Source: Nitrospirota bacterium (GTDB lineage: Bacteria; Nitrospirota; UBA9217). Taken from it: a DNA stretch of 64,000 bases. The stretch is taken from NCBI GenBank assembly GCA_963740085.1, contig CAVUCU010000001.1, positions 1,472,001 through 1,536,000 of the forward strand, written 5' to 3'. Positions 12,998-28,774 of this stretch are shown here, one piece after another. The notes under the pieces are model-generated. The model was not told where the DNA came from, did not search any database, and saw nothing but the letters and a program-made list of their open reading frames with translations. The first letter of the stretch is position 1. Every line of letters starts with the position of its first letter. A program made the translations under genes and the position numbers.

Positions 12998-14431
12998 CTA
13001 CGGGACAAGCTGGTTGGTATCCAGGGTGACCGCGCCGACCCGTGTCAACGCTCTTCCGTGAAGTACCGCACCGGTGTTCATCGTGATCGACGCATCTGCC
13101 AGTATCGTCCCATCGAATTCAGAGTTCACTCCAAGGGTCGCTGAGCTGCCGACCTGCCAGAAGATGTTGCTGGCCTGGGCGCTGCCGGCAAGGACGATCG
13201 AGGTGCCGGCATCCGTGATGAGCGTGGAGCCCATCTTGAAGATCCAGACCGCATTCGGGTCGCCCTGGGCGTCGAGAGTCAAAATGCCGTTCGGTCCCGT
13301 TCCCGATATTCCGCTCGTGCTCGCGTTAACATAGAGGCCGGGGGCAAGGGTCAGCCCGCCAAGTTGACCGGGCAGTGAGATGGCATTTGTTGATCGTGAC
13401 TGGGCATCATTGTACGCGGCGAGCAGATCGACTTTGGCTGTCTCTGCGATCGGACCGCCCGCGAAAATGGTTCCCGTTACATTGCCCGGCAGGAGTCCTG
13501 CCACCGCCGTACCGGGAAACACCCCGGCATCCCCGTCAATACTCGTGGTAACACCGGTGTTGGTGATCGTGGAGCCGGCCAGAACCCGGAAAGTGCCGGC
13601 CGTTCCAAGGACTACCGGCTCCGGACCAAGATGCCCAAGTGTACTTATAGTACCCGTAGTAAAGCTCCATGGATTCGGTACACTACCAGCTGCCAATGCA
13701 TTGCCTGCAAGATCGCTGGCAGATACAATCACGACGGCATAGGCGGCACTGGGTTCGAGCAGGCTTGCCGGCTTAAAGGTCGCCGTTGTGCCGGCGTAGG
13801 TCAGAGTGCCCAAAATGGTTCCCGAGGGCCCGGTCACCATGTAGCTCGTCGGGGTGATCGTTAAGGGGTCCATCGGCTTATTGAAGGTTGCGGTGATTAC
13901 CTGGTTGATGGGTACATTAATGGCGAGATCCGCCGGCCCTGTGACGACCAGCAATGGCGCGGTGGTGTCCGCAGTTGTGCCGGTTGTAAAGGTCCATATA
14001 AAGTTATTCGCCAATGGATTGCCTGCCACATTCTTGGCCCCGACTGTGATCATGCCGGTATAGGTGGTGTCGGGCGAGAGATTACCTGACGGTGTAAAGA
14101 GTGCAATGTGGCTTCCCGAATCATAGGTGATCGTTGCTGCTGTTACGAGAACTGCGCCGGGCCCTGTCACCGTAAAATCCGTTATATCGGTGACGGATGC
14201 GGCGTTCATCGGCTCGCTGAAAGCAACAGAGATTTTCCTGTTAAGGGGTACACCAGTGGCACTATCAGCCGGGACAGTATACACCACGGTTGGTACGGTG
14301 CCGGCTGAGGGGCCGCCCGGGGCTTCCGAACCATGGTCTCTGTCGCACCCGGCCGCAACAACGACCATGAGCAGCGCCATAAACCACATCATCTTGGTAA
14401 TTGCCTTGGAATAACTTGTGTCTGTTCGCAT
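12998..14431 (-). CDS. ice-binding (DUF3494) lipoprotein with two Big_5 domains
   Basis: Lipobox AAGC, two Big_5 repeats, then LGTAGTF.VLAGS.ITNTG, LTLDAQGDPNAVWIF and NIFWQVGSSATLG motifs. Confidence 0.9.
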   Translation of the reverse strand: MRTDTSYSKAITKMMWFMALLMVVVAAGCDRDHGSEAPGGPSAGTVPTVVYTVPADSATGVPLNRKISVAFSEPMNAASVTDITDFTVTGPGAVLVTAATITYDSGSHIALFTPSGNLSPDTTYTGMITVGAKNVAGNPLANNFIWTFTTGTTADTTAPLLVVTGPADLAINVPINQVITATFNKPMDPLTITPTSYMVTGPSGTILGTLTYAGTTATFKPASLLEPSAAYAVVIVSASDLAGNALAAGSVPNPWSFTTGTISTLGHLGPEPVVLGTAGTFRVLAGSTITNTGVTTSIDGDAGVFPGTAVAGLLPGNVTGTIFAGGPIAETAKVDLLAAYNDAQSRSTNAISLPGQLGGLTLAPGLYVNASTSGISGTGPNGILTLDAQGDPNAVWIFKMGSTLITDAGTSIVLAGSAQASNIFWQVGSSATLGVNSEFDGTILADASITMNTGAVLHGRALTRVGAVTLDTNQLVP

Positions 14432-14507
14432 TGGTGTATCCTCCATTGTAAAATTTGCAAAGCACGATAGCCTGTCACTTCCTGTAAGGTAATTGTATAG
14501 GGAGTAG

Positions 14508-14523
14508 TACACTTACCGTGCCA
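14508..14523 (-). promoter_or_regulatory. putative sigma54 (-24/-12) promoter for the stress island
   Basis: Minus strand reads TGGCACGGTAAGTGTA (perfect -24 box, GT instead of GC at -12), about 80 nt upstream of the ice-binding gene. Confidence 0.6.
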
Positions 14524-14637
14524 GAGGAGAACTGCGGTTTCATCGGTGACAACACATTGATTGTGTAGAATAAGATGGAAAGTGAGATAAAGGAGTAAAA
14601 AAAAATCCGTCAAGGGAAGCCGTTGCATTTAACAGTG

Positions 14638-14653
14638 CCGTCAAATGCGACGG
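14638..14653. promoter_or_regulatory. palindrome, candidate upstream activator sequence
   Basis: CCGTC-N6-GACGG about 120 nt upstream of the sigma54 motif; a second palindrome GTCCCGAC-AAA-GTCGGGAC lies at 14813-14831. Confidence 0.35.
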
Positions 14654-14899
14654 ATTGCGAAGAGAAAAAATATTGTAGGTCTTATGTTGTACTTCTCGCT
14701 ACTGTTGAAACAATGATCGATTATCGGCGCACCATTTAAATTTTTTAAAACCTAACATCTTTATCGTATTCATACCGCTTAGAAATTTCATTTCTAACGT
14801 TTTTATCAGTGCGTCCCGACAAAGTCGGGACCCGTGGTTACACTCTGTTTGTCTTTATTGGTCTGATCTGAGAGGCGTTACGATCTTTTCAAGCCGGCA

Positions 14900-16078
14900 T
14901 TACTTGCCGAATTGAATTTCAAGGGTAGCCATAAAAGCGAACAACGGATTCCTGCGGCCGGTGTCCTTTTTCGGCAAGGTAACTTCGGGCGCAAGCTCGA
15001 AAAAGAGCCAGGGTCGGTAAAAATTTCTTCGATAAAGTGATCCGATCCGATAATTTTGAATGGCCCAACCAGGATAATTCACTCCCCACATGTTGGTATC
15101 ATAGGAAATTGCGCTCTTGGGTGACAATTGGGTGAAAAGACTGATCCCGGTATTCCAGGTTATGCCGTTGGTGCCGTCAAGGTAGGTTATGTTATTGCCC
15201 CACCGGACAAACGTAAACGTGGTGAACTTTCGTTCAAGATCGAACTGCACGGTGTTCGTGAAATGTTCAATGGTTTGCCACATGGCGATTTCGGAAAATC
15301 GGATGAGGTAGGCCTCGCCAAAGGGTTTCTCGTACTGGAACCGCGTCCTGATATAAGCATCGGGGTGCAGACTGATCTTGATTCCACTGTCAATGCTGAC
15401 CAGTGCCCGGAGCCTGGTATATAAATTCGCTTGCACCCCCACGATTGGTTTTCTGACCCCGGTATCCGGGTCGATTCCGGGATCGACGGGCTGACCCGGC
15501 TGGGTGGTAAATTTGTCGGCAGACGATTCAGAAACAAGATAAAACTTCGCTCTTTTCAGCAAGTTCTCCAGTTGCGGCAGGCGATACCGGAATCTGTAAC
15601 TGTGGATAAGATCAATATTCTGACCCTCGGTCCACCGGACTGAATTTCTCAGCAGAATTAAAGTAGCGGGCCGGACATCCAGCAAAACATGGTTCTTCTC
15701 AAAGAAGGTATCAAACCATACCGCTGGTCCGCAGGTGTTGTCCTGCACGAAGTCATGCACCTGGTCAAGCCAATTATCTCCTTCAACGGTGACGGTAAAA
15801 CAGGGGTCTATCTGCGGCCCGAATCGCTCTTCGCTTATTGTTGATGTCACCGGTCGAGGTGATTTGTCTGTGGTAAGTTTCTGCGGTGCTGCCGGCGCAG
15901 GGGAAGGCTGCAGGGTAGTCGATTCCGTGCTCGCCGGGCCGCTATCCGTCGTAGCCGGGTGTGTTCCAAGTTGTCCCGGAGTTTCAGCTCCGGCGCCATG
16001 AAAACACGTGAAGAGAAGAACGAGGTTGAAAAACAACGCGACAGAGGAATATCGAGGATACTTCATAGCAATAATCAT
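14900..16078 (-). CDS. hypothetical outer-membrane beta-barrel-like protein
   Basis: Signal peptide, WFD.FF motif, YRRNFYRPWLFFELAPEV, and C-terminal LEIQF. Confidence 0.7.
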   Translation of the reverse strand: MIIAMKYPRYSSVALFFNLVLLFTCFHGAGAETPGQLGTHPATTDSGPASTESTTLQPSPAPAAPQKLTTDKSPRPVTSTISEERFGPQIDPCFTVTVEGDNWLDQVHDFVQDNTCGPAVWFDTFFEKNHVLLDVRPATLILLRNSVRWTEGQNIDLIHSYRFRYRLPQLENLLKRAKFYLVSESSADKFTTQPGQPVDPGIDPDTGVRKPIVGVQANLYTRLRALVSIDSGIKISLHPDAYIRTRFQYEKPFGEAYLIRFSEIAMWQTIEHFTNTVQFDLERKFTTFTFVRWGNNITYLDGTNGITWNTGISLFTQLSPKSAISYDTNMWGVNYPGWAIQNYRIGSLYRRNFYRPWLFFELAPEVTLPKKDTGRRNPLFAFMATLEIQFGK

Positions 16079-23227: not shown

Positions 23228-24835
23228 ATGGATTATTCAGACGAAATAAACAAGCGGCGGACCTTCGCCATCATCAGCCACCCTGACGCGGGAAAGACCA
23301 CGCTGACGGAGAAGTTTCTGCTTTTCGGCGGGGCGATCCAGGTGGCCGGCGCGGTCAAGTCGAACAAGATCAGGAAGAGCACGTCCTCGGACTTCATGGA
23401 CATCGAGCGCCAGCGCGGCATCTCGGTGGCAACGTCGGTCATGGGCTTCGACTATAACGGACTCAAGATCAATCTGCTCGACACGCCCGGTCATAAGGAT
23501 TTTGCCGAGGACACTTATCGCACACTGACCGCGGTGGACAGCGTTATCCTCATCATTGACTGCGTCAAGGGCGTGGAGGAACAGACCCTCCGGCTTATGG
23601 AAGTCTGCCGCATGCGCAAAACGCCCGTCATCATCTTCGTGAACAAGCTCGACCGCGAGGGCAAGCATCCCTTCGAGCTTCTGGACGAGCTCGAAACAAA
23701 GCTGAACATAAAGGTCCAGCCGCTCTCATGGCCCATCAGCATGGGAACCTCCTTCAAGGGCGTTTACAATCTCTACAACAACAGCCTCTATCTCTTCCGG
23801 CCCGGCGGCGTCAAGGTCGCGGAGGACATACTCGAGATCCAGGGCATCGGCGACCCCGTCCTTGACCAGCAGCTCGGCGACTATGCGGTAAAACTCCGTG
23901 AGGACGTTGAGTTGATCGAGGGCACGCACAATCCCTTTGACGTAAATGCGTACCTGCGCGGCGACCTTGCACCGGTCTTCTTCGGCAGCGCCATCAACAA
24001 CTTCGGCGTGAAGGAACTGCTCGACACCTTCACCGAGATCGCGCCCACACCCGGCAGCAGGCCCACCGACCAGCGGGTCGTCAACGCCGATGAGAAGGAC
24101 TTCACGGGCTTCGTGTTCAAGATCCACGCGAACCTGGACCCCAGGCATCGCGACCGCATCGCCTTTATCCGCGTCTGCTCGGGCAAGTTCGAGCGGAACA
24201 AGATGTTCCTTCATGTGCGCCTGGGCAAACAGATCCGGTTTACCAGCCCGGCGAGTTTCCTGGGGGCGCGGAAGAGCATCGTGGACGAGGCCTTTCCCGG
24301 CGATGTGATCGGACTGTATGATACCGGCAATTTCAAGATCGGTGACACGCTCACGGAAGGCGAGAAGCTCATGTTCCAGGGCATCCCTACCTTCTCGCCC
24401 GAGGTGTTCAAGGAACTCGTGAACCTCGACCCGTCGAAATCGAAACAGCTGGCAAAGGGCATCGAGCAGCTTACCGACGAGGGCGTGGCCCAGCTCTTCA
24501 CCCAGCAGCAGGGCAACCGCAGGATCGTCGGTACGGTGGGTCAGCTACAGTTCGATGTGCTGCAGTACCGGCTGGAGCACGAGTACAACGCGACCTGCAG
24601 GTTCGATCCGATGAAGATCTTCAAGGCGTGCTGGATCACTGCGAGCGACGAAAAGGAAATGGACAAGTTCTGCAGATTCAAATCGGACCGCATCGCCACG
24701 GACAAGGACGGCAATATCGTGTTCCTCGCGGAATCGGATTGGGTGTTGCGAAATATGATCGAGGCCTACCCCGATATCAAATTCCATTTTACTTCTGAGT
24801 TCAAGCGGGAAATGCAGAAGACCAGCGCAACGTAA
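23228..24835 (+). CDS. prfC: peptide chain release factor 3
   Basis: [28 protein letters not shown] and NKLD motifs; 535 aa. Confidence 0.98.
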
Positions 24836-25345
24836 TTACCATCATTTAAATCAATCCTACACCGCAGAGCGCGCAGAGAACTTCTTGAAGTAGAACTTCG
24901 GTGCCTCCGCGTCCTCGTCCCGCCTCTCCGCCTTTTAATTATCAGCTCCGTTTGTTTTTTCTTCTTCTAACCGCAAAGTTCACAAAGTTTATTACTATCT
25001 AAAAGACTGGGTCTTCCGGGTTTTGTGTGGGTCGCTTTTATCCGTCCTTAAATCAGCCCATGAGGAGGGAATCGTTTTTTTTGCACATCCCCTTCGTGTC
25101 CTGAACGACATTTTTGGCACCCGTCTAAGGCCGCGTCCGCTCGCCCGCGCAAACTCGGCCTGCGCCCTCAGACACCGTGCTCTTGCGATAACGCTGGTGC
25201 AGGCAGTGCAACGCGTTCGCCCTGCGGGATGCTTCCTTAGACATAATGGCTGACAGTTACAAAAATAGTGACCTGCCCCTTGCAACGTGGGTTATACTTG
25301 AGAACCAGGTTCTCAAATACAGAGCCACAACCAAGGAGGCAGGTC

Positions 25346-26455
25346 GTGAAACATTCTATCATTTTTGTCGGACTCGATGTACACAAAGATTCTATTGATA
25401 TCGCTCTCGCAGATGACGGCAGAGACGGTGAAGTCAGATCCTACGGCGCTATTGGGGGAGATCTGACTTCACTGGATAAAGCGATCCGCAAATTTCGCCG
25501 TTCTGGTGTTGAACTTCGCTTCGTGTATGAAGCCGGCCCCTGCGGTTATGAAATCTACCGGCATTTAACCGCGCAGGGGTTCCATTGCGATGTTATCGCT
25601 CCCTCGATGACGCCAATACGGAGCGGAGACCGGATCAAAACCGACCGGCGCGATGCCGTTACTCTGGCCCGGCTGTATCGTGCAGGTGAACTGACCCCGG
25701 TTTATGTCCCCCGAGAGGACGATGAGGCCATGCGAGACCTCGGCCGGGGCCGGGAAGACGCAGTAAATGCCAGCCGGAAAGCCCGACAACGGTTAAGCGC
25801 CTTTGTCCTTCGGCATGGTTTCCGGTTTGTGAGCAGAAAAGCATGGAGCGTCGCTCACCTGCGGTGGCTTGCGGATATCAAGATGTCGCATCCGGCACAA
25901 CAGATCACGCTCCAGGAGTACATCCACAGCGTCGAAGAGTGCTCAGAACGGGTAGACCGGTTGACCGAACAGATATTGAAACTGCTTCCATCATGGCGAA
26001 TGGCCCCGGTGGTGACTGCTCTTCAAGGTCTTCGCGGCGTAGCTACTGTGGTTGCCGTTACCATGGTGGTTGAAATAGGCGACCTGAGGCGGTTTGAGAA
26101 CCCCCGGCAGCTCATGGCATATCTGGGCCTTGTGCCGTCCGAGAATTCCAGTGGCCAGACCACAAAACGCGGCGGCATTACCAAAACGGGTAATGGACAT
26201 GCCAGACGAGCTCTGATTGAAGCGGCACAGGCATACAGCTTTCAGGCCAGAGTCAGCAGGGAACTCCGGAAACGTCAAGAGGGCCTGACGCGTGAGATCA
26301 AGGAAATCTCCTGGAAAGCTCAAGTACGGCTCTGCGGCCGGTTCCGGAAGCTTACTGCCAGAGGAAAGAACCGAAACCGAACTGTAACGGCAATTGCACG
26401 GGAGCTTTCCGGCTTTATGTGGGCCATTGCTAAGGCAGTACCCATGCCGGCGTAG
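25346..26455 (+). CDS. IS110-family DEDD recombinase/transposase
   Basis: VGLDVHK, YEAG, KTDRRDA (DEDD) and YLGLVPSENSSG (catalytic Ser region); GTG start after AAGGAGG. Confidence 0.96.
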   Translation: MKHSIIFVGLDVHKDSIDIALADDGRDGEVRSYGAIGGDLTSLDKAIRKFRRSGVELRFVYEAGPCGYEIYRHLTAQGFHCDVIAPSMTPIRSGDRIKTDRRDAVTLARLYRAGELTPVYVPREDDEAMRDLGRGREDAVNASRKARQRLSAFVLRHGFRFVSRKAWSVAHLRWLADIKMSHPAQQITLQEYIHSVEECSERVDRLTEQILKLLPSWRMAPVVTALQGLRGVATVVAVTMVVEIGDLRRFENPRQLMAYLGLVPSENSSGQTTKRGGITKTGNGHARRALIEAAQAYSFQARVSRELRKRQEGLTREIKEISWKAQVRLCGRFRKLTARGKNRNRTVTAIARELSGFMWAIAKAVPMPA

Positions 26456-26720
26456 GGCCAGGACCAAAAGCTTTCAAAGAACAAGACCGCAATTAAGGAG
26501 AACAGCCAAGAACAAAAAAACAACTATCCAGGGTATCACCAGAGATGCGACCACGATCTGGAGAACTCTCGTTTGGCCTAGGGAATAAGGCTCTTGCCGA
26601 ACTTCCGTTCTTAGAGCGAGACAGCTCCGCGATGAAGACAAGTCATGCGGTCAAACCCGCGAATATCAGAGTGATCAATCGTCGCCGTACAGGTCCCATC
26701 TCTGATTATGTCCTGGACCA
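26456..26720 (+). ncRNA. putative bridge/seek RNA of the IS1111 element (boundaries approximate)
   Basis: Stem-loops with internal loops carrying TGGCCTA and TTCTTAG (match the target flanks) and ATATCAGA (matches the donor junction); ATTATGTC lies just downstream. Confidence 0.7.
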
Positions 26721-26886
26721 AAAACTAACAGCATTCGCTTTATATAACGAGGCATTTGAATCTATTTTCTTATTGACAACTGTCAGCCATATCAGGCCAG
26801 GACGGGTGCCAAAAATATCGTAAGGGCCGCTCCGGGGACGTGCGGGGTTGGGGTAAATCTTTTTGATTCTGACTTTCCCCGGCGCC

Positions 26887-27069
26887 GGGCAGCTCTGACC
26901 GAAAGACGCGCATAGCAATGCTGCACAGACCGTAGTTGCGAGAACACGACAAGGCAGACACGGCCGAACCCTTTTTAAAGGGTGAGGGTGGAGTGCTGCC
27001 AGACCTGCATATCAGTGCGGAGATACTGTATATATCCGGCATGCTGCGCGGCCGAGCGATGAGCTGCCC
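26887..27069. repeat. long imperfect hairpin module, copy 1
   Basis: GGGCAGCTC..GAGCTGCCC closing stem; homologous inverted copy at 29200-29429. Confidence 0.8.
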
Positions 27070-27240
27070 AAAAAAACAATGCACACGTTGGACAAGTGCC
27101 AACTAGATATCCTTAATTAAGTGATCCACATAAAAGTCAGAAGAACCAAAAGACTTTTTCTCTGCGTCCTCTGCGGTAAAATAGCCTTCTCGTTTATCCT
27201 AAAACTATTTACATTTTATAGTCGTCGTCTCGATAAAACA

Positions 27241-27270
27241 AAAAAAGCCCCCCGCCCAAAGACGGGGAGC
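27241..27270 (-). terminator. rho-independent terminator of trpB2
   Basis: AGC.CCCCG/CGGGG.GCT hairpin followed by a poly-T tract on the minus strand. Confidence 0.65.
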
Positions 27271-27292
27271 TCAAGAAAGGTTAGAGCTGACG

Positions 27293-28645
27293 TTAGATCT
27301 TGGGAAGCTTTGCGAGGGCCTCTTTGATCTTCGCCGCCGGATACTCATAGTCCTTAAGCTTGCCGTCATGATAATCCGCATATGCCTGGAGATCGAGGTA
27401 CCCGTGGCCGCTCAGGTTGAAGAGGATCGTCCTTTGTTTGCCTTCCTGCTTTGCCTGGAGCGCTTCATCGATAGCACCGCGGATCGCGTGTGCGCTTTCG
27501 GGGGCGGGAATGATCCCTTCGGTGCTGGCAAACTGCACCGCGGCTTCGAACACCGGTATTTGGTTGTACGCCTTGGCCTCGATCAGCTTGTCATGATAGA
27601 GTTGAGATATGATCGGTGAGTCGCCGTGGTAGCGCAGCCCTCCTGCATGAATGCCCGGGGGCATGAAGTCATGGCCGAGGGTATACATCGTCATCAGGGG
27701 AGTCAGTCCGGCAACATCGCCGAAGTCGTACCGAAACTCGCCCTTGGTGAGCGTGGGACAGGACGCGGGCTCGATGGCTACGATGCGAACCTTCTTGCCC
27801 TCGATCTTGTCATGTACGAATGGAAAGCTGATGCCGGACAGATTGCTTCCGCCGCCACAGCAGCCGATCACGACATCGGGGTAGTCTCCGGCGATCTCCA
27901 TCTGTTTCTTGGCCTCGAGCCCGATCACGGTCTGGTGCAGGCATACGTGGTTCAGCACCGAGCCGAGGGCATAGTTGGTATCATCATGCGTGGCAGCATC
28001 TTCCACGGCCTCGGATATGGCAAGGCCGAGGCTGCCCGGGTTGTTCGGGTCAAGTTCAAGGGCCTTCCTTCCCGAATTCGTGACCGTCGAGGGACTCGCG
28101 TGAACCGTGGCACCCCATGTTTCCATCATCATCCTGCGGTAGGGTTTCTGGCCATAGCTCACCTTCACCATGTAGACCGTGACATCGAGCCCGAAAAGCT
28201 TGCCCGCGAGGGCCATGGATGAACCCCACTGGCCGGCACCGGTCTCGGTGGAGATGCGCTTGATACCCGCCTTTTTATTATAATAAGCCTGGGGGATGGC
28301 GGTATTCGGCTTGTGGCTGCCCGCAGGGCTCACGCCTTCATATTTATAGTAGATCTTTGCCGGAGTGCCGAGCGCCTTTTCGAGCCGGTGCGCGCGAAAG
28401 AGCGGCGAGGGCCTCCAGAGAGAATAGATGTCCATAACTTCTTCCGGGATGTCGATCCACCGCTCCTGGCTCACCTCCTGCAAAATCAGATCCATCGGAA
28501 ATATCGGGGTGAGATCCTGCGGTCCTATCGGCTGATGCGTGCCCGGATGGAGCGGCGGCTTGGGCTTGTTCGGCATGTCCGCCATGATGTTGTACCACTT
28601 GGTGGGGATCTCTTTGTCGGAAAGAAGAATCTTGGTCTGTCTCAT
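27293..28645 (-). CDS. trpB2: TrpB2-type tryptophan synthase beta chain (stand-alone)
   Basis: [25 protein letters not shown] and [10 protein letters not shown] motifs; no adjacent trpA. Confidence 0.93.
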
Positions 28646-28774
28646 ACATCCTCCTCGATAATCAATTATAGTCTTGCTGCACATCCGGCACGTTCGTAAT
28701 AGTATACTATTCTGTGGACTTTCTCAACGATATTTTCTTCAGATACGCTGGTGAGAATCGCCTGCAAAACCACA

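Follow-up and report, generated by a model that had tools for sequence, protein, structure and literature searches.

In this study, a 64,000-nucleotide stretch of DNA from a Nitrospirota bacterium (GenBank assembly GCA_963740085.1, contig CAVUCU010000001.1, positions 1,472,001 to 1,536,000 of the forward strand), hereafter called the window, was analyzed. The element at window positions 25241–26795 was identified, with a probability of about 0.88, as an intact IS110-family insertion sequence of the IS1111 type with its own guide RNA, judged from sequence data. The assignment was based on a DEDD recombinase, conserved element ends, empty target sites in the same genome, a predicted structured RNA 3' of the gene, and loop positions of this RNA that changed together with the insertion sites of relatives. 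The element is a clear further example of the bridge RNA/seekRNA systems described in 2024 and not a new kind of system. The element and its ends were as follows.

25241–26795, plus strand: whole insertion sequence, 1555 bp with one AG counted; ends kept in 38 related loci with differing flanks
25239–25240, plus strand: left copy of the AG core (target side), directly preceded by the left target ...CTTCCTT
25241–25345, plus strand: left end, 105 nt, with the right-donor terminus ACATA, the hexamer CATAAT, and the ribosome-binding site AAGGAGG (25333–25339)
25246–25258, plus strand: left subterminal inverted repeat ATGGCTGACAGTT, exact reverse complement of 26778–26790
25346–26455, plus strand: recombinase gene, 369 aa, GTG start, assigned by Pfam, NCBIfam, and catalytic residues
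26778–26795, plus strand: right subterminal inverted repeat AACTGTCAGCCAT (26778–26790), then ATC and the AG core
26796–26801, plus strand: right target GCCAGG (host repeat), adjoining the AG at 26794–26795

The GTG start codon of the recombinase gene lies 7 nt behind AAGGAGG. The protein matched Pfam PF01548 DEDD_Tnp_IS110 (1e-14) and PF02371 Transposase_20 (3.2e-23), and scored 255 bits against NCBIfam NF033542, "IS110 family RNA-guided transposase" (cut-off 140). Matches to the solved ISCro4 and IS621 structures were weak (for IS621, E = 1.6e-5 to 8wt6). For comparison, one genome per species was scanned; 260 stretches encoded relatives, and 80 were kept (loci with L numbers below). Residues D11, E62, D100, D103, and S269 were present and were kept in 77–80 of these 80 relatives. 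The counterpart residues of IS621 are D11, E60, D102, D105, and S241 (Hiraizumi 2024, PMC11208158). S269 is located within GLVPSENSSG (residues 261–270), which is a GL-P----SG motif; the motif GL-P----S(t)G is described for the C-terminal domain of IS1111 transposases (Siddiquee 2024, PMC11187229). The closest named relatives found were ISEc45 and ISSso6, with 47.9% and 45.6% protein identity, respectively (names as annotated in plasmid records).

The subterminal inverted repeat of the element was perfect (13/13 bp between 25246–25258 and 26778–26790), and IS1111 subterminal inverted repeats of 7–17 bp have been reported (Durrant 2024, PMC11208160). AG was present at both junctions (25239–25240 and 26794–26795), with no other duplication of the target, and the right end read ...CCATATC-AG, then GCCAGG. 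The non-coding 3' region at the right end was 340 nt long, versus 105 nt for the left end. In the 38 relatives with both ends alignable, the termini (AG followed by ACATAATGG... on the left, ...CCATATCAG on the right) were nearly invariant and the flanks differed. At locus L024 (3845–5847), one copy of a four-copy relative, the right end appeared to be displaced by about 1.7 kb, as if another insertion interrupted it.

The left flank of the element was found to be part of a dispersed repeat, present in the genome of the element and in those of its relatives. The same genome contains four paralogues without an insertion, which read ...CTTCCTTAG followed by GCCA(A/G)GACGGG..., with a single AG; the target sequence as found in the paralogous repeat was CTTCCTTAGGCCAAG. 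The empty paralogue at C4:758940 (minus strand) was identical to the inferred 15-bp target. These empty paralogous sites confirmed the boundaries of the element, the single AG of the empty site, and the preference of this family for repeated sequences as targets. All motifs listed in the initial annotation, a reading made from the letters of the window, were found at their positions. Its account of the element type, the ends, the AG core, and an RNA 3' of the gene agreed with the domains, the conserved ends, the empty sites, and the covariance model described below.

Structured RNA and target guides

The predicted RNA was located on the gene strand within the non-coding 3' region. The features of its closing helix and of its first stem-loop were as follows.

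26525–26719, plus strand: bridge/seekRNA-like structured RNA (predicted); the limits are the extent of the covariance-model match, not mapped RNA ends
26527–26552, plus strand: P1 closing helix, 5' arm, pairing with 26692–26717
26692–26717, plus strand: P1 closing helix, 3' arm, including ATTATGTC (26705–26712), a segment that drifts with compensation in the 5' arm
26560–26628, plus strand: target-binding stem-loop with the stems GGAG/CTCC (26560–26563/26625–26628) and TCTC(G)/(C)GAGA (26567–26571/26617–26621)
26568–26571/26617–26620, plus strand: CTCG/CGAG, stem at the first internal loop
26572–26580, plus strand: 5' target guide TTTGGCCTA, complement of top-strand T-AG-GCCAAA (right target, core, and one base)
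26574–26580, plus strand: TGGCCTA, where the initial annotation had placed it
26608–26616, plus strand: 3' target guide TTCTTAG (26608–26614), then AG, in the same sense as the left target and core

The final 300 nt aligned well across 26 distinct elements, and the 195-nt core of the alignment corresponded to window positions 26525–26719. The consensus fold obtained with RNAalifold contained 50 pairs, of which 23 had changes on both sides. In this fold 96.4% of cells were paired, compared with 91.2% in shuffles (0/500 reached the observed value) and 36–44% when the partners were slid. Both-sided compensatory change was observed in 17/23 pairs of P1, a 23-bp closing helix that encloses both loops. 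Above the large internal loop, the apex of the target stem-loop was formed by a short stem of GAA/TTC and GG/CC. A fold of the single sequence gave z = -2.32, which was suggestive and was superseded by the alignment fold.

The covariance model R1, built from this alignment, scored 206.6 bits at the RNA of the window, its sole match in the genome. Among 42 further relatives, R1 detected the RNA in 37, each time 3' of the gene and on its strand; the other five had at most 165 nt of DNA after the gene. It also matched two enterobacterial plasmid elements, one of which was annotated ISEc45 (38.6 bits, 3' of the gene). No family of Rfam 15 matched the element. An Rfam L10-leader hit was rejected, being outside the element (27232–27300, minus strand) and below threshold (E = 0.54). 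The 3' region deserves annotation as an RNA gene; no Rfam 15 model finds this RNA.

Further sequence blocks were observed around the RNA. An AAGGAG block (window 26496–26503), about 25–45 nt upstream of P1, was conserved in almost every relative and is not followed by a start codon. An outer helix between AAGGAG (about 26498–26503) and CTCCTT at the right end was considered and rejected, as it was not predicted on the 300-nt alignment. In relatives (e.g., the right end of L011), a CCCCTTT...AAAGGGG hairpin followed by TTTTCT lies after the RNA and before the right inverted repeat, and is possibly a terminator. The window version of this hairpin (TTCGCTTTATATAACGAGG, 26725–26772) was weaker.

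The loop positions were then compared with the flanks of the relatives, the check that the initial annotation had proposed. The nine columns that follow the CTCG stem were, in almost all elements, the reverse complement of T, the core, and the right flank. The first insertion set was reduced from 39 rows to 34 unique insertions by dropping L020, L029, and L061 (short flanks) and L026 and L027 (duplicate sites). It contained 16 distinct 5' (right-target) guides, each with insertion sites. The right-target guide matched 4.41/6 flank positions, compared with 2.12 for non-cognate flanks, and 0/20000 permutations reached this value. The left-target guide matched 2.0/4 positions (mean over guide classes, 13 classes) versus 1.1 in permutations, again with 0/20000 reaching it. 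Right positions +1 to +5 co-varied (31, 34, 34, 25, and 21 of 34; non-cognate about 7–24/34), while position +6 did not (5/34). On the left, positions -4 (31/34) and -5 (20/34) co-varied over a background of about 8; positions -6 and -7 (11/34 and 10/34) were at background and did not.

An independent set was formed from loci outside the model, in which the right end was located blind, solely via the donor-loop word. Nine rows were dropped: five had no downstream DNA or right-end candidate, three were duplicates, and one had a 10-nt guide column. Four evidently mislocated ends (L024, L076, L018, L072) were kept. In the 30 remaining insertions, with 21 distinct right-target guides and their insertion sites, the guide matched 3.5/5 flank positions versus 1.43, and 0/20000 permutations reached this value.

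The matches could in principle be due to chance, with the 3' region being only a structured untranslated tail. Words of this length are indeed frequent in shuffled sequence. When the non-coding region was compared with the 22-nt target and donor junctions for exact shared words, a target word of at least 7 occurred in 701 of 2000 shuffles, a donor word of at least 8 in 194, and both in 75. Word matches in a single sequence are by themselves not significant. The words rise above chance because they lie in loops of a covariation-supported fold, their columns change with the flanks, and empty paralogous sites exist. With flank covariation in two separate insertion sets, the chance explanation is hardly credible. 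In the real sequence, no target word was longer than a 9-mer directly after the stop codon, GGCCAGGAC, which matched the right flank. It was rejected as a guide: relatives with other targets keep GGCCAGAAAC, and the match is a coincidence.

As shown by covariation, the first internal loop reads both target strands; UUUGGCCUA pairs with top-strand T-AG-GCCAA. The top-strand complement (26572–26580) is located 5' of the same-sense strand (26608–26614). In IS1111 elements, the top-strand match is likewise 5' of the bottom-strand match (Siddiquee 2024, PMC11187229). The target loop of the initial annotation was borne out by covariation with the flanks, which was confined to -5 and -4 on the left, next to the constant T and the core, and to +1 to +5 on the right. 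The initial annotation had also invoked a G:U pair for a T/C difference between guide and left target. This difference is at position -6, outside the effective guide, so no G:U pair is needed.

The effective code of the guide in the window was CT-T-AG-GCCAA, about 10 bp (CTTAGGCCAA), and falls in the dispersed host repeat. The site occupied by the element fitted the guide at 2/2 left and 4/5 right positions, and three of the four empty paralogues fitted it perfectly. The guide fitted the repeat-family consensus GCCAA better than the occupied GCCAG. The repeat itself is mosaic and covers window positions 25000–25240 and 26796–26995. Copies in genome G000 were found at C1:3004–3270, C4:499312–499640, C4:758770–759048, and C1:898942–899142, plus many partial copies. 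The genome contained 22 further matches to the left flank and 31 to the right flank, and genomes from the same genus and family contained dozens. Within the mosaic repeat, TTTTTGGCACCCGTC and GACGGGTGCCAAAAA form an inverted pair.

In the 3' target-guide strand, the core is followed by A, which is the first base of the left end and not the next target base. The corresponding base was C in L055, whose left end begins with C, and the strand continued with AT in L066 and L081, whose left ends begin with AT. By analogy, this base may resemble the handshake guides of IS621 (Hiraizumi 2024; Nature 2026, for the features they describe).

Donor loop and the dinucleotide core

The second stem-loop contained the following features.

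26629–26685, plus strand: donor-binding stem-loop, GCGATG (26629–26634)/CGTCGC (26680–26685), inner stem GCGG (26647–26650)/CCGC (26657–26660)
26663–26670, plus strand: left-donor guide ATATCAG(A), ATATCAGA, reading in the same orientation ATATC-AG of the right end and then the initial base of the left end
26642–26646, plus strand: candidate right-donor guide GTCAT; relatives have GTCTT, which holds GTCT, the complement of AG-AC

In most relatives, the left-donor word and the right end were both invariant, and this joint invariance says little by itself. Three lineages with a changed right end were more informative. In L083–L086, the loop word was ATCAG and the end ATGAG (4/5 matches, versus 2/5 for the standard word). 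The loop word ATAAG occurred with the end ATAAG in L090 and again in L102/L103. In all three lineages, the end word adjoined a flank matching the target guide. These sequence changes supported a left-donor guide at 26663–26670, as the initial annotation had supposed.

A different view is that the second loop is not a donor guide, that the protein recognizes the ends via the subterminal inverted repeats, and that ATATCAG has another role. End recognition is stated to differ possibly in IS1111 elements owing to their inverted repeats (Siddiquee 2024, PMC11187229), no convincing right-donor guide was found here, and the constancy of donor word and end in most relatives leaves the covariation thin. 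Against this stand the loop word changing with the right end in three lineages and the predicted donor loops that Durrant 2024 (PMC11208160) reports for IS1111 members. Recognition of the ends by the protein instead of the second loop is improbable.

For the right-donor side, the segment GTC(A/T)T was compared in lineages with a changed left end. One change was compensatory (L066), one was a wobble (L053), and two were contradictory (L055, L081). The initial annotation had pointed to ATTATGTC (26705–26712) as a possible donor guide with an uncertain role, and in the window it is an 8/8 complement of GACATAAT. If it were the true right-donor guide, P1 would open and the strand would pair with the left end. 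In L066, a change in the segment matched the change in its left end. The segment gave no fit in L053, L055, and L083. At the same position, the closest relatives read GTTATGCC, ATCGTGCC, or GTCATGCC, with the 5' arm of P1 compensating and the donor end ACATAAT constant. Helix-compensated drift with a constant left end indicates selection on the P1 helix and not on donor complementarity. ATTATGTC is most likely an arm of P1 and no guide; its use as a right-donor guide is very improbable, and this part of the initial annotation was not upheld.

The element of the window has AG at all positions and is by itself uninformative on mismatched cores. Among relatives, the right-target guide encoded GG or AA at the core in the two groups listed here and in the L055 family, with the left-target and donor guides encoding AG.

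GG group: L023, L029, L030, L032, L035, L040–L042, L046, L048, L059, L065
AA group: L054, L070, L073, L074, L079, L082, L088

The targets of the GG group were in a palindromic GGATTCC(C/G)GC...GGGAATGAC repeat. In 9/10 GG-group insertions with both junctions visible, the left junction was AG and the right one GG, in agreement with the right-target guide; one (L029) had GG on both sides, and the reverse was found in none. In the L055 family (L055–L058, L063), whose AA guide may wobble-pair with AG, the right junctions were AG in four cases and AA in one. A symmetrical 2-nt staggered exchange, as in IS621, would be expected to give mixed outcomes after replication. The junction bias suggests that exchange takes place at a single position beside the dinucleotide, or that replication of one exchanged strand completes it. 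The broader proposal that the 2-nt core of IS1111-type elements need not agree between donor and target, with junctions inherited from one strand only, is tentative and rather doubtful.

Transcription, activity, and genomic setting

Two further short features bear on transcription.

26773–26778, plus strand: TTGACA, predicted -35 half of a promoter present only on the circle, with an 18-nt spacer to CATAAT
25242–25247, plus strand: CATAAT in the left end, predicted -10 half of the junction promoter

Both hexamers were conserved in relatives. A promoter scan returned two promoter-like matches, at the ends of the element (0.9 expected). IS1111 elements are reported to have no promoter other than that of the circle junction, and to co-transcribe the gene and a long RNA (Siddiquee 2024, PMC11187229). 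By comparison, excision of the present element would give a circle with the junction ...CCATATC-AG-ACATAAT..., in which TTGACA would be set 18 nt from CATAAT. On the IS1111 literature and the sequence, the junction promoter may transcribe the recombinase mRNA together with the 3' RNA, which would then be processed. The structured RNA of about 195 nt would act as the bridge RNA (seekRNA) of the element. By reference to the IS621 structures, D11/E62/D100/D103 and S269 would exchange strands at the AG, which reads CT on the opposite strand, so that each junction retains AG.

Several observations weighed against this interpretation. The recombinase, with 369 aa, exceeds the 330–350 aa given for IS1111 transposases (Siddiquee 2024, PMC11187229); the relatives align over residues 1–369, and the published length is a descriptive range more than a strict criterion. 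No right-donor guide was identified among the two segments tried, GTC(A/T)T and the 3' arm of P1. Some insertions fitted the guide poorly (L012 3/6, L031 2/6, L014 3/6), and the occupied site itself mismatched the guide at +5 (GCCAG). The promoter scan found no sigma-70-like promoter just upstream of the RNA. In public RNA libraries, the sole match was a metatranscriptome contig of 223 nt, which lies over the recombinase gene and differs from it at five positions, and none covered the RNA. This contig probably comes from a relative; another public run holds diverged relatives. Finally, the element is single-copy in its 3.46-Mb genome despite seven free CTTAGGCCA sites, four of which hold a perfect CTTAGGCCAA.

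The last points were considered with respect to activity. The element may be what it appears to be, with this copy being dormant or inactive in the present host, an intact-looking relic. The single copy would fit, since the seven free sites fit the guide equally well or better than the occupied one, as would the lack of RNA evidence from public runs and a transcription that should depend on a promoter existing only on the circle. Conversely, the full-length open frame, the catalytic residues, both ends, the 13/13 repeat, and all RNA helices are intact, and the RNA score is within the range of multi-copy relatives. A dormant copy is unlikely on this evidence, and still a possibility of some weight. 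The low spread means that the element is either a recent arrival or of low or no activity. That it is active because it is intact and that it could be reprogrammed, as the initial annotation had proposed, would follow by analogy with published work on other elements.

The element sits in the intergenic repeat between its neighbor genes, and no gene is interrupted. The neighbors, judged by eye from translations, are a peptide-chain-release-factor-3-like GTPase gene (23228–24835, plus strand) and a tryptophan-synthase-beta-like gene (27293–28684, minus strand). A different IS110-family recombinase (426 aa, 27–30% identity to that of the window) was present in three copies in genome G000, at C5:67832–69112, C6:about 14400–15600, and C7:about 243700–244800. 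Two 70-nt pieces, at G000 C6:10266–10335 (plus strand) and C5:73177–73246 (minus strand), were 83% identical to the left end (bases 2–72) and had the terminus CAG directly followed by CCAGAATGGTTGATAGTT (compare L002, L003, and L101). They are located directly upstream of a split outer-membrane beta-barrel frame in a duplicated region, which also contains a split AI-2E transporter, an IS200-like Y1 transposase, and a 426-aa IS110-family gene. These pieces were rejected as part of a larger element, the downstream frames being split or unrelated, and are probably remnants of a related element.

Comparison with known systems

Bridge RNAs are predicted in the right end of 93% of ISfinder IS1111 elements (Durrant 2024, PMC11208160). 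RNAs have been isolated from four IS1111 members (ISEc11, ISPa11, ISKpn4, and ISPst6), and were required and reprogrammable (Siddiquee 2024, PMC11187229). A specialist would now expect an element such as the one described here. It adds a natural, predicted pair of bridge recombinase and guide RNA from an environmental lineage, with a directly readable target code. Its natural target is a dispersed host repeat that is both occupied and empty within one genome. IS1111-type systems have received far less study than IS621, and the family offers a ready natural reprogramming series for them.

IS1111 seekRNA elements share with the present element a DEDD recombinase with GL-P----SG, subterminal repeats, and a long 3' non-coding region. 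In both, the top and bottom target strands are matched by two short RNA segments that overlap where insertion occurs, the one for the top strand being 5'; a promoter is assembled on the circle (predicted here), and a repeated host sequence is the target. All IS1111-group sequence features tested were present except the protein length range. The present element differs in that its recombinase has 369 aa instead of 330–350 and its RNA is deduced from sequence. Its host lineage is environmental, and its nearest relatives were found in Nitrospirota genome bins. ISEc45 and ISSso6 are distant; their loop words and ends differ (ATAAG-AG).

Like IS621, the element has a target loop and a donor loop, each with left bottom-strand and right top-strand pairing that covers the 2-nt core, although the right-donor strand is here only a candidate. 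The core reads CT on the other strand, the D/E/D/D residues and serine are present, and a handshake-like base follows the core. Unlike IS621, the RNA is 3' and not 5' of the gene, the guide order relative to the gene strand is reversed, and the inverted repeats are long rather than 2–3 bp. The protein match to IS621 is weak, and the long donor guide here reads the right end.

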